A stretch of DNA of 64,000 nucleotides from a virus (lineage: Duplodnaviria; Caudoviricetes): positions 32,001 to 96,000 of the IMG/VR virus record IMGVR_UViG_3300002092_001784. One strand, 5' to 3'. Below are positions 2,202 through 32,001 of the stretch, piece after piece. Each line of letters opens with the position of its first letter. Position 1 is the stretch's first letter. The translations under genes were made by a program, and so were the position numbers. The notes beneath the pieces are model-generated. The model was not told where the DNA came from. It ran no database searches and worked only from the letters and a program-made list of their open reading frames with translations.

Positions 2202-2209
2202 ATATTTAT
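2202..2209 (+). promoter_or_regulatory. ATATTTAT putative phage (late/middle) promoter box
   Basis: Recurrent intergenic octamer, upstream of 2253. Confidence 0.5.
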
Positions 2210-2252
2210 AGCAATAAAACAATCACGCTATAAATATAAATTTTTTCATTAT

Positions 2253-5971: not shown

Positions 5972-6003
5972 TTTGTTTTTATCGAAAATTTGTTGTATAT
6001 TTG
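5972..6003 (+). promoter_or_regulatory. Bacteroidota sigma-70-type promoter
   Basis: TTTG-N20-TATATTTG upstream of SSB. Confidence 0.7.
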
Positions 6004-6013
6004 TAGAACTGTT

Positions 6014-6021
6014 ATATTTAT
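6014..6021 (+). promoter_or_regulatory. ATATTTAT putative phage promoter box
   Basis: Intergenic, upstream of SSB. Confidence 0.5.
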
Positions 6022-6095
6022 ATATGTAACGGCGTGTAGGACAGACACGTAAATAAAACCATAAACTCATAAAACAATTTAAAACTTAAAAGAAG

Positions 6096-6926
6096 ATGGC
6101 TATTAACTTAGATGCAATCAGAGGTAGACTGAACAAACTACAAACGACCACAAGGACATCGGTGGAAACTTGGAAACCCGCACCGGGAAAATATCAAATC
6201 CGATTAGTTCCGTATAAGTTCAACAAAGAAAATCCATTCATTGAACTTTACTTTCACTACAACATCAACAACAAAACGTATCTGTCACCAATTTCATTTG
6301 GTAGACCAGACCCTATTGTTGAGTTCGCTGAAAAACTGAAAAGAATGGGTGACAAAGAAGATTGGAAGGCCGCAAAGAAAATGGAGCCGAAACTTCGGAC
6401 ATTCGTACCTGTATTGGTAAGGGGTGAAGAAGGTGAAGGAGTTCGTTTTTGGGGATTTGGAAAAACCGTATACCAAGACCTGCTTGGGTACATTGCTGAT
6501 CCCGATTATGGTGATATTACTGATCCAGAAACAGGTAGGGATATTATCGTTGAAATTGTATCAGCTGAAGATTCTGGTACTTCGTATCAGCAAACCAACA
6601 TTAGGGTTAAACCTAAAGAAACACCATTATCGGAAAAAGCAGAAGATGCCAAACGGTTTCTTGATTCACAAAAAGAGATTACTGAAATGTATTCTGAATT
6701 AACATATTCAGAATTAAAAGGTATTCTTGAAGGTTGGTTAAATCCATCGTCTGAATCTGATGATACTGATGTGCCATCACCATCGGCTGAAGTGTTATCT
6801 TCAAAACCGGCTGAAACCGCTAAAGCAACTCACGTTGCAAATGAAACCGCAAATTCAACACCTACATCTAATAACAAAAAATTAGATGATGTTGGTTCTG
6901 CGTTTGATGAACTGTTTAACAAATAA
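6096..6926 (+). CDS. single-stranded DNA-binding protein (T4 gp32-like)
   Basis: WKP..G...IR..PY, WGFGKTVY and GRDI motifs; acidic tail DDVGSAFDELF. Confidence 0.85.
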   Translation: MAINLDAIRGRLNKLQTTTRTSVETWKPAPGKYQIRLVPYKFNKENPFIELYFHYNINNKTYLSPISFGRPDPIVEFAEKLKRMGDKEDWKAAKKMEPKLRTFVPVLVRGEEGEGVRFWGFGKTVYQDLLGYIADPDYGDITDPETGRDIIVEIVSAEDSGTSYQQTNIRVKPKETPLSEKAEDAKRFLDSQKEITEMYSELTYSELKGILEGWLNPSSESDDTDVPSPSAEVLSSKPAETAKATHVANETANSTPTSNNKKLDDVGSAFDELFNK

Positions 6927-21409: not shown

Positions 21410-22372
21410 ATGAAAGTTACAGTTGTAATTAGAACATATAATAGGACTGATTTTTTGAAGCAGTGTCTTGCTTCAGTGAAGTTGCAAACACATACCGATT
21501 GGGAAGTTTTAATATTTGATGATGGTGGTAGTGATGCTAATTTTGAAATATACAATAAATTTAAGGCAGAAAATTCCGATAAACGAATAGTATATCTAAC
21601 AACACACACTGCGTATGAACTATTTTGTAATTCATGGTTACTTGCTCCCAATTTGGCAACGGGTGATATTATGGTTAGGTTGGATGATGATGATCTATTA
21701 GCAGAAGATTGTTTGAGTTACATATCCGATTTATATGAACGAAATGAAGATTTAGATTTCACATACGGAACTGCGGTTACATTTGATGGTGATAATCTTA
21801 TGACTATGATGGATACAATGAATCCACAAGAAGCACCTAAAACTCAAACTGCATGGGCTGGTTATACTATACCAAATAATCATCCATGGAGAGACCCGTT
21901 TTGTTGGTATGAGAATTATTATGAAGAACCTCAACCATTTACATCTATAATCCATTGTAGTAAATCGAATATAATGTGCATTTATCATTTATATTCAATG
22001 AGAACTGAATCGGTCAGACGTGTGAAGGATAAGATTACAGTAACTTCTAAATATGTAGATGATTTGGAATTTTTAGGAAGTTTGGATTATTTGGGATTAA
22101 CACATACATCAATACATAAAATACTTTCTTATGTTAGAGAGCATGATACAGGTAGGGTATCTGATAGGGGTAAGTTAACCGATGGTACTACATTGTGGGA
22201 TGATATACTGAGAATTAGAGATAAAGTAGATTATTTAAGACCTGCTGGATTTCAATCAAGAGTAATACCAATCAACGCAACCAATAATACCAATAACGGT
22301 ATTACCTATGAGTTACAAAATACGTTCTCACACTATTATAGTAGAATAAAATTCAAATCTTTAGTATATTAA
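21410..22372 (+). CDS. glycosyltransferase family 2
   Basis: VVIRTYNR, LIFDDGGSD, RLDDDD. Confidence 0.85.
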   Translation: MKVTVVIRTYNRTDFLKQCLASVKLQTHTDWEVLIFDDGGSDANFEIYNKFKAENSDKRIVYLTTHTAYELFCNSWLLAPNLATGDIMVRLDDDDLLAEDCLSYISDLYERNEDLDFTYGTAVTFDGDNLMTMMDTMNPQEAPKTQTAWAGYTIPNNHPWRDPFCWYENYYEEPQPFTSIIHCSKSNIMCIYHLYSMRTESVRRVKDKITVTSKYVDDLEFLGSLDYLGLTHTSIHKILSYVREHDTGRVSDRGKLTDGTTLWDDILRIRDKVDYLRPAGFQSRVIPINATNNTNNGITYELQNTFSHYYSRIKFKSLVY

Positions 22373-22404
22373 TTTGGAAATACGAATAATTTTTCGTATA
22401 TTTG
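22373..22404 (+). promoter_or_regulatory. Bacteroidota sigma-70-type promoter
   Basis: TTTG-N20-TATATTTG upstream of the clamp gene. Confidence 0.75.
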
Positions 22405-22439
22405 TACAGAATATAAAATTTAACAATAAACTTTGAAAC

Positions 22440-23150: not shown

Positions 23151-24365
23151 ATGAATTTTTGGGATACTGAACCACAAACACCTGTTTTTGATTTTGATAT
23201 TGAAAAACAGAAATTGATTGAAAATATGGATTATCTGTTTGCAATGTCCGTTCAAGAACAGACACTTTATAAAAAATGGGTGGAGCTCCAAGAACCTACC
23301 ATGCAGAAAGATAAATCCCAAATATCCACATATTATGATATGCAATGGAAACCAACCGATATCAATAATAAGGAACTAACGATTGCCGAAATTCAATCGT
23401 TAGAACCTTATGTTGAGATTGTGGATGATAATGCTGCCGAATCTACCAAATGGGCTCAAATCCGTAGAATGATTCATACAATGGATTTTACGGCAAACCC
23501 CGGTAGAAATGTGAAAATCAATGTAAAGGATAGAAAGACGGGTAAGTTATTGGGTCAAATTTCTCTTGCATCGGATGTTACATCATTGGGGGTGCGTGAT
23601 GAATATATTGGGTGGACTAAGGATGACAAATTCAAAAAAGGTAAACTGAATCACACTACCATTGCATCTACTATTGTATGTACACAGCCATTGGGATATA
23701 ACTTTTTGGGTGGTAAACTGATAGCTATGATGTGTACTGTACCTGAAGTTAGAGAACATTGGAAGAAAAAATACGATAATACTTTAATCGCAGTTGGAAC
23801 AACTTCGTTATATGGTATCAATTCTCAGTACACAGGCCTTCCACTTTTCAAAACTTTGGGTGAAAGTAAAGGTAAGATCAGTATAAAACCTGATGATAAA
23901 TTTTATGATCCATGGCACCAATGGTTAAAAGAAAATCGTACAGAGTGGTATAAGAAAAACATAACAGAAGAGCGTGAACGAAATGGCGCTAATATGGGTT
24001 ATGAACGAAATGGACCTGTTAGTGGCATCAAACAAAAGATTCTTACACAAATTTTCAAAGAGTGTGGTATTAAAGCAAATGAATATCATCACGGATTTAA
24101 GCGTGGAATTTATTTGGCTATGATGTACGAAAATGGTAATGATTTTCTTTGTGATAAAATTGGTGAAGACCAACTAAAACTTAGAGATAAGTTTGTGAAG
24201 GGAACAGATTATATTATGGAGTGGTGGAAACGACACGCTATTAGTAGATATACCAAGCTACATACAGAGGGACGTTTGAAACCGGATCATCTTTTTTACA
24301 TCAATGGTATAGGACAAGATTGGGATAGCTTTAAGGCCGAATACTTAGGAGAAGTTGGACGTTAA
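23151..24365 (+). CDS. DUF4338 / Druantia DruA-like protein
   Basis: PGRNVK..VKDRKTGKLLGQISLASDV..L..RD.YIGW and YNFLGGKLIA...TTSLYG pattern. Confidence 0.7.
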   Translation: MNFWDTEPQTPVFDFDIEKQKLIENMDYLFAMSVQEQTLYKKWVELQEPTMQKDKSQISTYYDMQWKPTDINNKELTIAEIQSLEPYVEIVDDNAAESTKWAQIRRMIHTMDFTANPGRNVKINVKDRKTGKLLGQISLASDVTSLGVRDEYIGWTKDDKFKKGKLNHTTIASTIVCTQPLGYNFLGGKLIAMMCTVPEVREHWKKKYDNTLIAVGTTSLYGINSQYTGLPLFKTLGESKGKISIKPDDKFYDPWHQWLKENRTEWYKKNITEERERNGANMGYERNGPVSGIKQKILTQIFKECGIKANEYHHGFKRGIYLAMMYENGNDFLCDKIGEDQLKLRDKFVKGTDYIMEWWKRHAISRYTKLHTEGRLKPDHLFYINGIGQDWDSFKAEYLGEVGR

Positions 24366-25324: not shown

Positions 25325-25858
25325 ATGAGTCAAACAATTAAATTATTAAAAGAAGCATTAAAAGATATAGCCGGAGATACTACCGGCTATAAAATTTACT
25401 GTGATATGGATGGTGTTCTTACGGATTTTGATAAACAATTCAAAGATATAACAGGTATACCTGCTAATGAATTTGAAAAAACACATTCTCAAACTGAATT
25501 TTGGGGAGAAGTTGAAAAGGGCGGATTGGAATATTGGACAAAAATGGAATGGATGCCGGGTGGAAAGCAGTTATGGAATTTTATTAAGAACTATGATGTT
25601 GAAATTCTATCAGCTCCATCAAAATCTAAACTTTCAATTATTGGTAAAAAGCAATGGGTATCTGAAAACCTATCACCTAAACCTAAATTGAATTTGGTTA
25701 GAGCCAAAGAAAAACAGAAGTTTGCAAATTCACACGCAATACTAATCGATGATAGACCACAAAATTTAGAACAATGGAAAGCAGCCGGTGGTATTGCAAT
25801 AAAATGTGTGAATGGTGAGGTTAGTTCAGTAATAGATAAATTAAAAAAATATGTTTGA
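25325..25858 (+). CDS. 5'(3')-deoxyribonucleotidase (HAD superfamily)
   Basis: IYCDMDGVLTDF, ILSAPS, ILIDDRPQNLEQWKAAGG. Confidence 0.85.
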   Translation: MSQTIKLLKEALKDIAGDTTGYKIYCDMDGVLTDFDKQFKDITGIPANEFEKTHSQTEFWGEVEKGGLEYWTKMEWMPGGKQLWNFIKNYDVEILSAPSKSKLSIIGKKQWVSENLSPKPKLNLVRAKEKQKFANSHAILIDDRPQNLEQWKAAGGIAIKCVNGEVSSVIDKLKKYV

Positions 25859-26792
25859 AACAGTAAACGAAAAGAAAAACAACAGTTTATGGACTGAGTC
25901 ATACCGACCAACCAAATTGGCGGATTACATCGGAAATGAACACTTAAAATCAAAAGTAGAGGGGTATTTGGAATCGGGCGATATACCTCATTTACTGTTA
26001 TATGGCAAAGCTGGAACTGGTAAGACTACATTGGCTAAATTGATTGTAAATTCAATCGATTGTGATATGATGATTATCAACGCATCTGATGAAAACAATG
26101 TTGAAACAGTTAGAACAAAGGTGAAGAACTTTGCATCGTCTATGGGATTCAAACCATTTAAGATTGTTATTTTGGATGAGTTTGATTATATGACTGCAAA
26201 CGCACAGGCGATTCTTCGTAACTTAATGGAAACATTTTCACAGCATTGCCGGTTTATCTTAACGTGTAATTATGTTGAAAAGGTAATTGAACCAATTCAG
26301 AGCAGATGTCAGACATTTCAAATCGTACCGCCAACTAAAAAAGATGTTGCAATTCGGATAAGTCAAATATTGAAAGACCAGAACATAAAGTTTGAGTTGA
26401 AGGATTTGGTTCCTGTTATTGATGCAGCATATCCTGATATTCGTAAGATTATTAATACCTGTCAACTTAATTCTATTAAAGGTGAATTGAAGGTTGATGT
26501 TCAAAATCTGTTAGAGAATGATTATAAGACCAAAATTGTGGACATTCTTACATCTAAAAATGATAAAAGAAATAAGTACATGCAATGCAGGCAAACTCTT
26601 ATTGATTCAAAGGTTACAGATTTTACCGAACTATATACGTTACTTTACGATAAAGTTGACGAATACGGCGGTGAAAATACAGCTAATATCATTTTGATAT
26701 TAGGGGAGAGTGTATATAAGAGTGCGTTGGCAATCGACAAAGAAATCATTGCTGCGGCGACAATTATTAGTATCATTAATCTGATAGGATAA
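25851..26792 (+). CDS. clamp loader AAA+ subunit (RFC/gp44-like)
   Basis: LWTESYRP, GKAGTGKT, INASDE, ILDEFD, IQSRC. Confidence 0.93.
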   Translation: MFETVNEKKNNSLWTESYRPTKLADYIGNEHLKSKVEGYLESGDIPHLLLYGKAGTGKTTLAKLIVNSIDCDMMIINASDENNVETVRTKVKNFASSMGFKPFKIVILDEFDYMTANAQAILRNLMETFSQHCRFILTCNYVEKVIEPIQSRCQTFQIVPPTKKDVAIRISQILKDQNIKFELKDLVPVIDAAYPDIRKIINTCQLNSIKGELKVDVQNLLENDYKTKIVDILTSKNDKRNKYMQCRQTLIDSKVTDFTELYTLLYDKVDEYGGENTANIILILGESVYKSALAIDKEIIAAATIISIINLIG

Positions 26793-26812
26793 TCTACTTT
26801 TTTAATTTGGTA

Positions 26813-26909
26813 ATATTTATATATGTAGGGTCACAGCTACATAAATAACGAATTAAAATATACCCATTGGTGAGTAGAGACTGTGACCTCGAAAGCCTAT
26901 GGGTTTTTT
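26813..26909 (+). ncRNA. candidate structured RNA (two hairpins with 8-bp loop-loop complementarity) upstream of the GIY-YIG gene
   Basis: TATGTAG/CTACATA stem with loop GGTCACAG; ACCCAT/ATGGGT stem containing CTGTGACC; T6 tract; ATATTTAT box at 26813. Confidence 0.6.
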
Positions 26910-26915
26910 ATTAAG

Positions 26916-27737
26916 ATGGCATATGTTTATAAACACACACGGTTAGACACTAACGAAGTATTTTATATTGGTATTGGTAACGATTTGGAATATAAAAGAG
27001 CATACGATGTTCGTAATGGGAGAAACGCACATTGGAAACGGGTTATTAATAAAACAGAATATACGGTAGAAATTATTGAGGATTGTATTGATAGAGAAAT
27101 CGCATGTGAACGTGAAAAATATTGGATTAATTTCTATGGTAGACGAGACCTGAATGAAGGAACTTTGGTAAATATGACTGATGGAGGAGACGGTGGGGAT
27201 ACCATTACCGGTCACCCAAATCGAATTGAAATATTGAAAAAGAAATCTGATTCCGCTAAGGGGCGTGTTGTGTCGGATGAGATAAGACTCAAAATATCAA
27301 AAGCACATAAGGGAATTTCAATGATAGATAAATATGGTGAAGAACGTGCTTTGGAAATGAAGAGGAAAATGGCAGAAGCATCTACCGGCCGCATCATCTC
27401 AGAAGAAACCCGCCGTAAACTAAGTGAAGCGAGTAAAAATATATCCGAAAAGACTCGAAGTAAACTAAGTGAAGCCAGTAAATTGTGGCACTCAAATAAC
27501 GAATGTCCAATGACAGGAAAAACTCATTCTGATGAAACTAAACAGAAAATGAGTGATTCTCATAAAGGATATATTAAAAGTGAAGAGCATCGAAAGCATT
27601 TGAGTGAATCCAGAATTGGAATGAAGTTTTCAGACCAGCATATACAAAAATTAAAAGAGTCTCATACTGGTAAGACCGCATCGGAGGAAACAAAACGAAA
27701 AATGAGTGAATCACAAAAAAACAGATATAAAAAATAA
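26916..27737 (+). mobile_element. GIY-YIG homing endonuclease with tandem NUMOD3-like repeats
   Basis: AYVYKH...FYIGIG, R and E motifs, LVNMTDGGDG, repeated GxxxSEETxxKxSEA units; start refined to ATG 26916. Confidence 0.88.
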
Positions 27738-27744
27738 ATAAATT

Positions 27745-28047
27745 ATGGGAAATTTAATAGGAGCCGGCGATACGCCGAATCAACAACAGAAAAAAATAAT
27801 GGCAGACCTTTCGGCATCCAAACCGATGTTATGTGTAGGATGTGGATATGATGTATTCTTACCCGCAATTAAACTACGAAAAATATCCAAACTGATGATA
27901 GGCAGTACAGCAGATCAGATATTACCATTGGATGTGTTTGTATGTGGAAACTGTGGCGCAGTGAACGAAGAACTGTTACCAATTCAAATTAGAACATTAG
28001 AAGCAGCAGAGAAACAACAAAAATCTTCAGTAATCGAACCTGAGTAA
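27745..28047 (+). CDS. zinc-ribbon hypothetical protein
   Basis: CVGC and CGNC pairs. Confidence 0.7.
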   Translation: MGNLIGAGDTPNQQQKKIMADLSASKPMLCVGCGYDVFLPAIKLRKISKLMIGSTADQILPLDVFVCGNCGAVNEELLPIQIRTLEAAEKQQKSSVIEPE

Positions 28048-28536
28048 ATGGCTAAAACTGTAAAGGAAAAAAAAGAAGTTATAAAAACAACAAAAACGTT
28101 GTTCGATCATATTAAAGCGGTTACCAACGATCAAAATCCCAAATATTGGGAAAGTTTGGACGAATCGGATAAAAAGACGTGGTCGAACTATATGATTATA
28201 CGATTTATGACTATGAATCCGGATTGGGTTGAGTTGATTTCTGAAGTACAACCGTATTTGCAAGAAGCTCCGCCTAAAGCAGTTTATAAGGCATTGATTG
28301 GTGTAATACCTAAAAGTAGGGCGTTTTTGAAGTATATGAAAGCCGCATCATCGGAAACCTATGAACAATGGGTAGTTGATTTGGTAGCTAAGTATTATGG
28401 TGTGAGTCTTATGGAAGCAGAAGATTATTTACATATTTTGTATAAGAGCCATACTGGAAAACTTCATATTAAAGAGATAGCTGAATCATTTGGAACTGAT
28501 ACCAAAAGTATCACAAAACTAAAATTAGGAGTATAA
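28048..28536 (+). CDS. probable clamp loader small subunit (gp62-like)
   Basis: Size, NYMIIRFMT motif, position near the gp44-like gene. Confidence 0.55.
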   Translation: MAKTVKEKKEVIKTTKTLFDHIKAVTNDQNPKYWESLDESDKKTWSNYMIIRFMTMNPDWVELISEVQPYLQEAPPKAVYKALIGVIPKSRAFLKYMKAASSETYEQWVVDLVAKYYGVSLMEAEDYLHILYKSHTGKLHIKEIAESFGTDTKSITKLKLGV

Positions 28537-28555
28537 TAATTGAATTATTTTTGTT

Positions 28556-28603
28556 AAAATATCCGGGTAAATTTGTTTATTCGGATATTTTTTTGTATCT
28601 TTG
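28556..28603 (+). promoter_or_regulatory. 16-bp hairpin (terminator-like) overlapping a Bacteroidota promoter whose -33 TTTG forms the loop
   Basis: AAAATATCCGGGTAAA-TTTG-TTTATTCGGATATTTT; TTTG 28572 then N20 then TATCTTTG 28596. Confidence 0.65.
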
Positions 28604-28625
28604 TAATACAAATTAAAAACATAAT

Positions 28626-30564: not shown

Positions 30565-32001
30565 ATGACAGAATATAAAGTAGGAGACATTAGAAACGGT
30601 AGTGAGGTAATACCTGCGGAGCAGAGAAAGAAGATATTACTTCTATCTGATGATTTGAGAATGGCGAGCGGTATTGCTACAATGTCCAAAGAATTTGTAT
30701 TAGGTACAATTCATAGGTATAATTGGTTTCAAGTTGGTAGTGCTATCAACCACCCAGACCAAGGAAAGATTTTGGATGTAAGCGCTGATACAAAGAACGT
30801 AACCGGTATATCTGATGCAAATCTAAAAATTTTACCGTGGAATGGATATGGAAATGCAGATTTACTACGGCAATTGATTAACGCAGAACGGCCGGATGCT
30901 ATACTTCATTTTACAGACCCACGATATTGGACATGGTTATATGATATTGAACATGAGATAAGACAAAATGTTCCAATCTTATACTACTCAATTTGGGATG
31001 ATTTACCTGACCCAATGTACAATCGTAATTTTTATGAAAGTTGTGATTGGATCGGTTGTATTTCCAGACAGACTTATGGCATTACCAAAAGAATGATGTC
31101 TAAAGCAGATAAATCAACATGGAAACCATTTAAGGAATGGCAAGCAAATTATGTACCACATGGTATCAATACTGATGTTTACAGACCAATAACTGTACCT
31201 GATGAATTTAGAAAAGAAATTTTGGGAGATAAAGAATATGATTTCGTATTATATTGGTCTAACAGAAACATTCGTAGGAAACAACCAGCCGATGTTATTT
31301 ACGCTTTCAAGCTTTTTTGTGATAAAATTGGAAAAGAACAGGCAGATAAGGTTTGTTTATTAATGCACACACAACCTGTGGATGAAAATGGAACAGATTT
31401 ACCAGCAGTTATTGCCGCAGTTGCACCTGATTGTAATATCATTTTTTCGGACAAACGAAGAGGTACTGATCAATTAAATCTACTATATAACATAGCAGAT
31501 GTAACTATTAACATTGCTAATAATGAAGGATTTGGATTAACTACGGCTGAAAGTGTAATGGCAGGTACTCCAATTATAGTAAATGTTACTGGTGGATTGC
31601 AAGATCAATGTGCATTTACTGTAAAAGGTAAGTTATTAACAGCAGAAGATTACATTGAAATCGGTTCTTTACACAACTGGAGAAAGTGGAAATCAAAAGT
31701 TAAGTGGGGTGAGTGGGTAACTCCAATTTGGCCAAAAGCACAATCATTGGCAGGTTCAATCCCAACACCGTATATTTGGGATGATCGCGTTGATATTGAG
31801 GATGTGGCTGAAGCCATTTTAGAGGTATACAAAGTTCCAAGTCCAGAACGAAAAACTGCTGGTCTTAAAGGTAGGGAAGCATTCATTACCAAAATGGGAT
31901 TAAACACTGAAAATATGTGTAAAACAATGGCGGATGGTATTGATACTACTCTTAAAAATTGGAAGCCAAGAGAACGTTATGAACTTTTCAAAATTAGATA
32001 A
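30565..32001 (+). CDS. glycosyltransferase family 4
   Basis: NRNIRRKQ, YNIAD, EGFGLTTAESVMAGTP. Confidence 0.88.
   Translation: MTEYKVGDIRNGSEVIPAEQRKKILLLSDDLRMASGIATMSKEFVLGTIHRYNWFQVGSAINHPDQGKILDVSADTKNVTGISDANLKILPWNGYGNADLLRQLINAERPDAILHFTDPRYWTWLYDIEHEIRQNVPILYYSIWDDLPDPMYNRNFYESCDWIGCISRQTYGITKRMMSKADKSTWKPFKEWQANYVPHGINTDVYRPITVPDEFRKEILGDKEYDFVLYWSNRNIRRKQPADVIYAFKLFCDKIGKEQADKVCLLMHTQPVDENGTDLPAVIAAVAPDCNIIFSDKRRGTDQLNLLYNIADVTINIANNEGFGLTTAESVMAGTPIIVNVTGGLQDQCAFTVKGKLLTAEDYIEIGSLHNWRKWKSKVKWGEWVTPIWPKAQSLAGSIPTPYIWDDRVDIEDVAEAILEVYKVPSPERKTAGLKGREAFITKMGLNTENMCKTMADGIDTTLKNWKPRERYELFKIR

Follow-up and report, generated by a model that had tools for sequence, protein, structure and literature searches.

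A homing endonuclease gene in the clamp-loader operon of an uncultured T4-like phage is preceded by two hairpins with complementary loops, which raises the question of what this structure is and what it might do for the gene behind it. The window analyzed here is a stretch of 64,000 nucleotides (positions 32,001 to 96,000 of virus record IMGVR_UViG_3300002092_001784) belonging to a 266-kb uncultured virus record in which nearly all genes are on one strand. All features of the window described below are on the plus strand, and coordinates are those of the window unless they are marked as genome positions. A first-pass annotation, made from the sequence alone, had proposed that the hairpins form a pseudoknotted RNA of approximately 90 nt that travels with the nuclease. 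This proposal was borne out: homologues with covarying loops were found, and the RNA and the nuclease gene together constitute an inserted cassette. The element is one member of a large family of phage leader RNAs for which we found no description in the literature. Members of the family have a conserved RNA fold with a loop-loop helix, are positioned between a promoter and an open reading frame (ORF), and are mobile with nuclease cassettes. The reading that we consider the most likely, at about even odds, is that the element is a cis-acting, promoter-proximal attenuator and insulator, in which a terminator fold scaffolded by the loop-loop helix would limit expression of the downstream gene.

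Structure of the leader at the clamp-loader locus

The predicted leader RNA is about 85 nt long (26825 to 26909) and comprises a 5' hairpin, an A/U-rich linker, a terminator-like hairpin, and a U-run. Hairpin 1 in its full extent (26822 to 26843) consists of TATGTAG (26822 to 26828), the loop GGTCACAG (26829 to 26836), and CTACATA (26837 to 26843); its core (26825 to 26840) is a GUAG/CUAC stem with the 8-nt loop GGUCACAG. The linker (26841 to 26861) is not conserved in sequence within the family. Hairpin 2 (26862 to 26904) is of the terminator type, with the arms ACCCATTGG (26862 to 26870) and CCTATGGGT (26896 to 26904). It is built from a lower stem (26862 to 26867 with 26899 to 26904), a GGU/GCC middle stem (26869 to 26871 with 26895 to 26897), a sarcin-ricin-type internal loop (5' strand GAGUA, 26872 to 26876; 3' strand GAAA, 26891 to 26894), and a GAG/CUC apical stem (26877 to 26879 with 26888 to 26890) that closes the loop at 26880 to 26887. 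The complement of loop 1, CTGTGACC, lies in the apical region at 26881 to 26888. Rereading the sequence placed both hairpins, this complement, and the ATATTTAT box upstream exactly where the first-pass annotation had put them. The annotation had also described a T6 tract with an ATG 7 nt later. The six T's are present at 26904 to 26909, directly 3' of hairpin 2, but the ATG follows after 6 nt because the first T of the run doubles as the last stem base.

In the minimum-free-energy fold both hairpins form and ACUGUGAC is in an 8-nt loop closed by GAG/CUC, so both complementary segments are exposed in apical 8-nt loops. All eight bases can pair, as first claimed, but the helix maintained across the family is only 7 bp (26830 to 26836 with 26881 to 26887, GUCACAG/CUGUGAC), and the eighth pair, G26829-C26888, competes with the GAG/CUC apical stem. 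The hairpins are weak individually (-2.3 kcal/mol for hairpin 1 alone and -0.5 kcal/mol for the apical part of hairpin 2) compared with an estimate of about -9 kcal/mol for the loop duplex, which suggests that the kissing helix serves as a scaffold.

The perfect 8-nt complementarity is beyond chance by several measures. A GC-rich (at least 5 G/C) perfect 8-nt inverted repeat with a spacing of 15 to 90 nt occurs in 1 of the 134 intergenic gaps of the genome, which is this one, and a comparable repeat was present in 16 of 20,000 dinucleotide shuffles of the element. The decisive evidence against chance is that homologues hold the loop pairing through compensatory changes.

Hairpin 2 has the appearance of an intrinsic terminator, with a CCC/GGG stem base followed at once by T6, and this combination of a GC-rich stem base and a T-run resembles the ordinary terminators of the same genome. 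A simple terminator scan did not list hairpin 2, which is atypically long and interrupted. The ATG at 26916 is 12 nt past the base of hairpin 2; it has no Shine-Dalgarno sequence, and no fold pairs it. Among four freshwater DNA runs that were compared, one contained a strain about 97% identical to this phage (run X6, contig 15) with the same junction and an identical hairpin 1; its sequence ends at 26868. This strain differs from the window at 16 of 469 positions between 26400 and 26868, 15 of them in the clamp-loader gene, and within 26793 to 26868 the one difference is G26809C.

Compensatory changes preserve the loop pairing across a phage RNA family

More than 100 homologous elements were recovered from uncultured phage contigs by pattern and covariance-model searches. 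The first pattern, built on the invariant blocks around loop 2 and demanding no T's, matched 56 viral contigs with 37 unique sequences. A looser second pattern matched at least 119 viral contigs, with 97 unique copies among the matches listed, and the family counts given below rest on these matches unless the first pattern is named. The window element matched the covariance model R1 over its full length (86.2 bits; E = 8e-16; model positions 1 to 85 of 85), the window sequence being one of the 35 in the seed alignment of that model.

Among the homologues of the endonuclease, two were preceded by a leader that is clearly homologous; they were on two contigs from one freshwater sample, L113 and L114, and the nucleases are 42% and 54% identical to that in the window. 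Loop pairing was kept through two compensatory double changes in L113 and four in L114: the pair of loop 1 and loop 2 is GGUCACAG and CUGUGACC in the window, UGUUGAGG and CCUCAACC in L113, and GGUUACUG and CAGUAACC in L114. The homology of these three T4-like cassettes starts about 30 nt 5' of hairpin 1 and includes the late-type promoter box.

The first-pass annotation had proposed searching Rfam and phage metagenomes for homologues with covarying loop-loop pairs and had regarded a lack of covariation as grounds for abandoning the idea. Such homologues were found among the metagenome contigs, and they do covary. Loop 2 was perfectly complementary to the loop of the upstream hairpin over at least 7 nt in all 37 unique copies from the first pattern, and in 95 of the 97 from the second, which have 31 loop sequences. 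Covariation was tallied in two alignments, first one of 35 sequences made with MAFFT and then one of 100 hits, with 95 distinct sequences, for which only the nested helices guided the fit. Every helix, including the loop-loop helix, covaried in both sets, and none of 500 shuffles reached the observed score. Paired cells amounted to 95 to 96%, versus 31 to 48% in controls with slid partners. Compensatory changes were found in five to six of the seven loop-loop pairs; all four pairs of the hairpin 1 stem covaried, with 98 to 100% of cells paired, as did the lower and middle stems of hairpin 2. The U-G pair of the GGU/GCC stem was retained as U-G in 31 of 35 sequences and further G-U pairs were kept, which argues for selection on the RNA of this strand.

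One alternative is that selection acts on the DNA: homing endonucleases would land or cut at the element, or phage modules would recombine through it as a linker, and the RNA fold would be secondary. Such a role would suit a core of about 45 bp that is nearly identical across diverse phages, placed exactly at module junctions beside at least three endonuclease families, with flanks that reassort on either side. However, compensatory changes in four helices together with conserved G-U pairs amount to selection on RNA pairing, and at the clamp-loader locus the element was not at the target site beforehand but arrived with the nuclease. The weaker version of this alternative, in which the loop complementarity is fortuitous, is excluded by the 95 perfect complements among 97 copies. 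We consider the DNA-level explanation very improbable, and, as judged from the alignments, the covariation effectively excludes a purely DNA-level role and chance.

The family has a consistent architecture. An 8-nt loop tops the 4- to 5-bp stem of hairpin 1. In hairpin 2, the lower stem covaries and is followed by the GAGUA/GAAA internal loop, a GAG/CUC apical stem, and a loop of 7 to 9 nt. The sarcin-ricin-type GAGUA/GAAA loop is the only invariant unpaired block, an invariance that is partly built in because the search patterns partly demanded it; the kissing loops are variable. Five to eight T's follow directly 3' of hairpin 2, and at least five were present at the stem end in 33 of the 37 unique copies from the first pattern. 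A promoter box is located 3 to 5 nt 5' of hairpin 1, mostly a host-type -7 box and, in the T4-like subfamily, a late-type box; a host-type -7 box ending 3 to 5 nt before hairpin 1 was found in 41 of 95 copies. The window element has the same layout, with the box at 26813 to 26821 upstream, the U-run at 26904 to 26909, and the ATG at 26916 within about 20 nt. Two divergent relatives (L222:1059-1141 and L229:10192-10279) share the 5' hairpin and the U-run and still have 7-nt loops that match each other, but the interior of hairpin 2 differs and the GAGUA/GAAA loop is absent, suggesting that the superfamily is wider than the pattern searches show.

Several findings indicate that the loops pair within one molecule. 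The linker is estimated to be 16 to 20 nt in 67 of 95 copies, and this narrow spread fits a loop-loop contact in cis. Two copies on one contig have different loop pairs, each matching only itself. A search of the whole genome for other targets of the loop sequences returned a single chance-level 8-mer. The first-pass suggestion of a guide or scaffold RNA is therefore unsupported, given also that the variable part is only 5 nt. Among the functions proposed at that stage, the sequence features favor an attenuator or expression-limiting leader.

Among the data searched, the family is known only from uncultured contigs. No Rfam 15 family reached threshold at E values up to 10 for the window and 11 related loci, the only match being the subthreshold one to TEG147 discussed below. 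Neither the window element nor a typical member of the family had a BLAST match in 50,697 deposited phage genomes. The core pattern had seven matches in 185,579 prokaryote genomes, all within unrelated sequence lacking the hairpin or U-run, and model R1 did not find the element in the 151 sampled Bacteroidota genomes and 2 others that were searched. BLAST and model R1 both indicated a single copy in the phage's own genome. Full-text literature searches by core sequence and keywords found no description of the element. Exact patterns derived from the window's own loops gave only chance matches, as did an 18-mer of hairpin 1 in metagenome contigs. One of these 18-mer matches, in L107:872-950 (also L108), is the 3' end and trailer of a bacterial tRNA-Glu gene with 21 nt in common with hairpin 1 of the window; the trailer has a 12-bp inverted repeat (GUCACAGC-U-ACAU / AUGU-GCUGUGAC) around its terminator. 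We rejected it as a relative and judged it a coincidence, although an odd one. A hammerhead-like reading of a few copies (CUGAUGA...GAAA) was also rejected: the CU varies among copies, and the fold lacks a three-way junction.

The leader and the nuclease gene as one mobile cassette

The gene behind the leader (26916 to 27737; 273 amino acids) encodes a protein with matches to the Pfam families GIY-YIG (PF01541; 3.9e-5; 24.3 bits, cutoff 22.6) and NUMOD3 (PF07460; 7e-17; 61.5 bits); its closest database homologue is 49% identical. From these domains and its presence/absence polymorphism, the product qualifies as a putative GIY-YIG homing endonuclease with NUMOD3 DNA-binding repeats. A GTG start at 26883 (284 amino acids), chosen by the gene caller, was rejected as spurious, since homologues begin with MAYVY..., which fits the ATG at 26916.

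Upstream is the gene for a gp44-like AAA+ clamp-loader large subunit (25851 to 26792; Pfam AAA / DNA_pol3_delta2), and downstream are a 100-amino-acid zinc-ribbon-like ORF and the gp62-like clamp-loader small subunit gene (together 27745 to 28536; Pfam Phage_clamp_A match at 28048 to 28536). In about 70 relatives with clamp-loader proteins 58 to 84% identical, no gap separates the clamp-loader gene from the homologue of the 100-amino-acid ORF: the stop codon of the former overlaps or directly adjoins the ATG of the latter, and both downstream genes sit directly behind the clamp-loader gene. Thus, the roughly 950 bp at 26793 to 27744, which contain the promoter box, the leader RNA, and the endonuclease gene and are missing from these relatives, represent an insertion. 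Because the target site in the relatives has neither the RNA nor the nuclease gene, the element moved here together with the nuclease. A group I intron was ruled out: there is no Intron_gpI match in 26000 to 28600, and the insertion falls between the stop codon of one gene and the ATG of the following one.

Four or five further endonuclease genes in this genome have the promoter box and lack the RNA, and the element was missing from most of the upstream regions of 18 endonuclease homologues in IMG/VR and three database homologues. In one relative, contig L032, an HNH-type zinc-finger endonuclease gene (L032:3308-3997) lies directly upstream of the clamp-loader gene, and a different insertion of about 180 bp with a small ORF (L032:4940-5119) occupies the same clamp-loader junction, which suggests that this junction is a repeated insertion site. 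Elsewhere in the replication operon, window positions 23151 to 24365 encode a solo DruA (Druantia) family protein (Pfam PF14236; 1.3e-21).

Promoter and predicted transcription start

The ATATTTAT box that the first-pass annotation had noted in front of the element proved to be a genuine recurrent promoter-type motif of this phage. It occupies 26813 to 26820 within the late-type promoter box A-TATTTAT-A (26813 to 26821), which was recognized from enriched intergenic words: the most enriched intergenic 8-mers of the genome are ATATTTAT, with 61 of 76 copies intergenic, and TATTTATA, with 44 of 52. The A-TATTTAT-A box has no -33 element and is dominant in the structural-gene region. Counted from the first T of the box, purines peak at a distance of 11 nt, and the ATG of five genes falls at exactly that distance, so the transcription start was set at +11. 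For the element, the predicted start is the G at 26825, the first base of the GUAG/CUAC core. The five genes with an ATG at +11 (genome positions 113092, 171352, 177062, 205666, and 234354, outside or at the edge of the window) probably have leaderless mRNAs, since the start codon coincides with the predicted transcription start; two of them are GIY-YIG endonuclease genes.

A second promoter class is represented by 37 intergenic sites that fit the Bacteroidota pattern TTTG-N20-TAnnTTTG. They cluster in the early, tRNA, and replication regions and have the extended consensus TTTGGAAA...GTATATTTG, as at 22368 to 22417 and 28567 to 28616. Such promoters suggest that this T4-like 266-kb phage infects Bacteroidota. 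Neither class of promoter was found between the U-run and the nuclease ORF, the 100-amino-acid ORF, or the gp62-like gene. At 5985 to 6097, an 80-nt leader contains a host-type promoter and a late-type box in tandem and, after them, a short hairpin (CGUGU...ACACG); the gene behind this leader has an N terminus resembling that of a gp32-type single-strand-binding protein. T4 gene 32 is autoregulated via a leader pseudoknot.

The late-type box and the predicted start at 26825 are located at or within a long palindrome (26817 to 26848). This placement would permit a switch particular to this locus, in which RNA started at 26825 lacks the upstream arm of the palindrome and forms a 13-bp helix (26828 to 26840 with 26874 to 26889) that blocks the terminator, whereas RNA reading through from the clamp-loader gene folds hairpin 1 and terminates. 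RNAfold predicted the long helix for starts at 26825 to 26829 and hairpin 1 with the terminator for starts at or before 26822. In addition, three other late-type boxes of this phage are inside the 5' arm or loop of terminator hairpins (window 2203 to 2246; genome 190888 and 208354), where upstream transcripts would terminate and the box's own transcripts would lack the 5' arm. Nesting of promoter and terminator thus appears to be an arrangement that this phage uses; one of the nested boxes precedes a NUMOD3 endonuclease gene. However, the extra CUAC/GUAG pairing is available only in the one subfamily with a GUAG/CUAC hairpin 1 stem. In other members, free covariation has given this stem various forms (GAUG/CAUC, GUUG/CAAC, UAUAG/CUAUA, GUGA/UCAC) that are unable to pair with the invariant GUAG, and for this reason a start-site-dependent antiterminator was abandoned as a general mechanism. 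Furthermore, kissing complexes are beyond what RNAfold can represent, so most of the 13-bp helix that it predicts is the loop-loop helix itself. We consider a switch of this kind extremely improbable even for the window element.

Genes behind the element and exchange of modules

An ORF of at least 40 amino acids started within 20 nt of the U-run at 82 of 92 loci, compared with 8% of random positions. Because an ORF begins near the U-run, no promoter intervenes, and a promoter box is just 5' of hairpin 1, the element is best regarded as a leader and not as a free-standing gene. The association with nucleases that the first-pass annotation had described extends to GIY-YIG, NUMOD4/HNH_3, and HNH genes behind the homologues, but it is not nuclease specific, as about one quarter of the elements precede replisome-organizer-like genes. 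The first downstream ORF is a homing endonuclease gene at about 40% of unique loci, a replisome-organizer-like gene at 26 loci, and a small ORF of about 80 amino acids followed by a replisome organizer at 7 loci; other early genes make up the remainder. The endonucleases include about 20 of the NUMOD4/HNH_3 type, about 8 GIY-YIG, several HNH, and one DUF723 type. Thus, the element is strongly enriched at endonuclease genes without being specific to them. Replication genes directly behind the element were found in siphovirus-like contigs.

Several contigs (L121, L123, L125, L126, L166, and others) carry four different loop pairs and differing upstream sequence in front of replisome organizers whose first 60 residues are identical; conversely, a single loop type was found before four different genes. 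The element therefore appears to sit at a recombination joint between phage modules.

This pattern of loop diversity bears on whether the terminated product of about 85 nt could itself be a functional small RNA, its self-complementary hypervariable loops acting as address labels either through multimerization, as in phi29 pRNA, or through action on nascent leaders with the same label, so that each cassette or phage would have a switch, timer, or means of exclusion of its own. Started by a promoter at +1 and ended by a terminator, the RNA would be a discrete transcription unit. Moreover, loops vary far more than stems among near-identical elements, four loop types with an invariant GAUG/CAUC stem precede an identical downstream protein N terminus, and copies within one genome are mutually orthogonal. 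However, the narrow linker agrees with a contact in cis, nearly every copy is joined to the start of an ORF, and no other target sequence is present in this genome. The apparent swapping of the element and its flanks as whole modules could also explain the loop diversity. We consider a small RNA of this kind quite unlikely. More specifically, the self-matching 7-nt loops may be labels of RNA-only recognition, such that each short terminated RNA would recognize leaders with its own label, by multimerization or by competing with the kissing helix, and would switch the downstream gene or exclude competitors with the help of a partner on the sarcin-ricin-type loop. We view this version, too, as rather doubtful. 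If it were true, selfish nuclease genes and phage replication genes would each be controlled through a channel of their own, orthogonal to the others.

Attenuation as the proposed function

The simplest reading of a GC-rich stem base and U-run like the genome's terminators, with no promoter before the ORF, is an attenuator. We propose that a mobile cassette of promoter, RNA, and GIY-YIG/NUMOD3 nuclease gene landed in the clamp-loader operon of a T4-like phage. Its RNA would begin at the first base of hairpin 1 and continue through about 20 unpaired A/U-rich bases into the long hairpin and the U-run. The 8-nt loops of the two hairpins would form a 7-bp kissing helix within the same molecule and thereby lock two individually unstable stem-loops, so that the long hairpin forms early enough for intrinsic termination. 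Whether begun at the promoter within the cassette or continuing from the clamp-loader gene, the majority of transcripts would end short of the nuclease gene, and read-through would supply a low dose of nuclease together with the downstream clamp-loader genes. Attenuation would in this way cap nuclease expression and insulate the cassette, the same goal as in T4 (PMC2988022). The deduced parts of this proposal are that transcription terminates here, that the kissing helix is required for this, and that some factor might modulate it.

Four considerations weigh against an attenuator. The 100-amino-acid ORF and the gp62-like gene, which are essential, lie after the U-run without a promoter of their own, which argues that the terminator cannot be efficient early in infection and would be leaky, partial, or regulated at best. 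The replication genes right behind the element in the siphovirus-like contigs argue likewise for termination that is partial or regulated. The tight spacing from U-run to ATG would also fit mRNA protection or a role in translation start. The invariant sarcin-ricin-type loop suggests a protein or RNA partner that the attenuation model does not name. Finally, the diversity of loop sequences in near-identical elements is not needed for a purely structural role.

The first two of these considerations are accommodated by a different function, in which the element is a 5' stabilizer of the mRNA and an insulator of translation start: a compact, nuclease-resistant fold followed by a U-rich landing site for the ribosome, any termination being incidental. 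The predicted start at the first paired base of hairpin 1 would leave no 5' overhang to the transcript. The proximity of the ATG to the U-run (within 20 nt at the 82 of 92 loci noted above) and the essential genes behind the element without their own promoter would also be explained. Furthermore, Shine-Dalgarno sites are missing from the genes of this phage, whose promoters are of the Bacteroidota type; Bacteroidota are not known to use Shine-Dalgarno sites. However, a stabilizer has no need for a U-run abutting the stem or for a conserved sarcin-ricin-type loop, and the GC-rich stem with T6 is indistinguishable from bona fide terminators of this genome. We regard a stabilizer as unlikely, and retain attenuation as the preferred function.

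Comparison with known regulatory RNAs

The only Rfam model with a resemblance to the element was TEG147 (RF03535), which scored 23.4 bits (E = 0.013 on 181 nt), below its gathering score of 56.1. TEG147 is a 60-nt small RNA of Staphylococcus aureus without an assigned function (PMC5826253), and its GAGUA/GAAA loop is scored by JAR3D as a sarcin-ricin motif (PMC13085918). It resembles hairpin 2 over its full length, with a lower stem, a stem of 2 to 3 bp, the GAGUA/GAAA loop, an upper stem, and a U-run. However, hairpin 1 and a loop-loop partner are both missing from the TEG147 model, and TEG147 itself comes from a Firmicute chromosome.

Homing endonucleases of the T4 family are restrained by terminators, late promoters at hairpins, RNA structures, and autorepression (PMC2988022). 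Like the cassette in the window, the T4-family genes (I-TevI/II/III, segB, Aeh1 mobE, and T4 mobE/segF; PMC2988022) are free-standing in essential operons, with a late-type promoter at a hairpin and an RNA structure and/or an intrinsic terminator that keeps expression low. The T4 hairpins are locus specific and hide a Shine-Dalgarno site. At the locus studied here the late promoter is likewise at or in a hairpin, but no ribosome-binding site or start codon is sequestered: there is no Shine-Dalgarno sequence and the start codon is outside the structure. Furthermore, the element belongs to one portable, conserved family that is common to unrelated nucleases and to genes that do not encode nucleases.

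The guanidine-IV (mepA) riboswitch is also a promoter-proximal leader of two hairpins in which a loop-loop contact has been proposed to decide the fate of a terminator (PMC11611296). In that riboswitch, however, the loop nucleotides are conserved and bind a ligand, and the kissing loop favors read-through (PMC11611296), whereas the loops of the element are hypervariable Watson-Crick 7-mers with no conserved pocket visible and the genes behind it have no common metabolic theme. Searches with the riboswitch models of any Rfam class at E values up to 10 gave no match for the window and 11 relatives.

The pairing of a promoter with a terminator at short range is also seen in the PR'-6S RNA-tR' unit of phage lambda, in which the promoter is followed by a close terminator that yields a short RNA and the downstream genes rely on read-through. 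In lambda, it is the Q protein, acting on promoter DNA, that determines read-through, and the 6S RNA is not known to have a conserved tertiary fold; for the element, no antiterminator is known or predicted. Loop-loop helices of 6 to 7 bp set specificity in the antisense systems of ColE1 (RNA I/II) and R1 (CopA/CopT) and in pT181 attenuation, upstream of replication-initiator genes. The element is similar in being found upstream of replication genes and in having variants that are separate specificities. However, in the antisense systems the loops are on complementary transcripts and act in trans, whereas both loops of the element are on one strand, in one short RNA.

Implications

Phages of Bacteroidota are abundant in lakes, oceans, and guts, and RNA-level gene regulation in them is almost undocumented. 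The T4 strategy of hiding a ribosome-binding site would not be open to phages whose hosts lack Shine-Dalgarno-based control. The element is a compact, portable, and very well-supported RNA fold, with more than 100 copies, 31 loop versions, and covariation in all helices. Selfish nuclease genes of several families carry it between phages, and phages also put it before replication-initiation genes. Loop swaps and compensatory swaps make it an easily mutated target for mechanistic work. If the element proves to be a terminator that depends on its kissing loops, nature would have supplied a new design for tunable, mutually orthogonal attenuators, useful as a genetic part in Bacteroidota. Attenuation, if true, would further explain why mobile nucleases do too little harm to be lost from essential operons.

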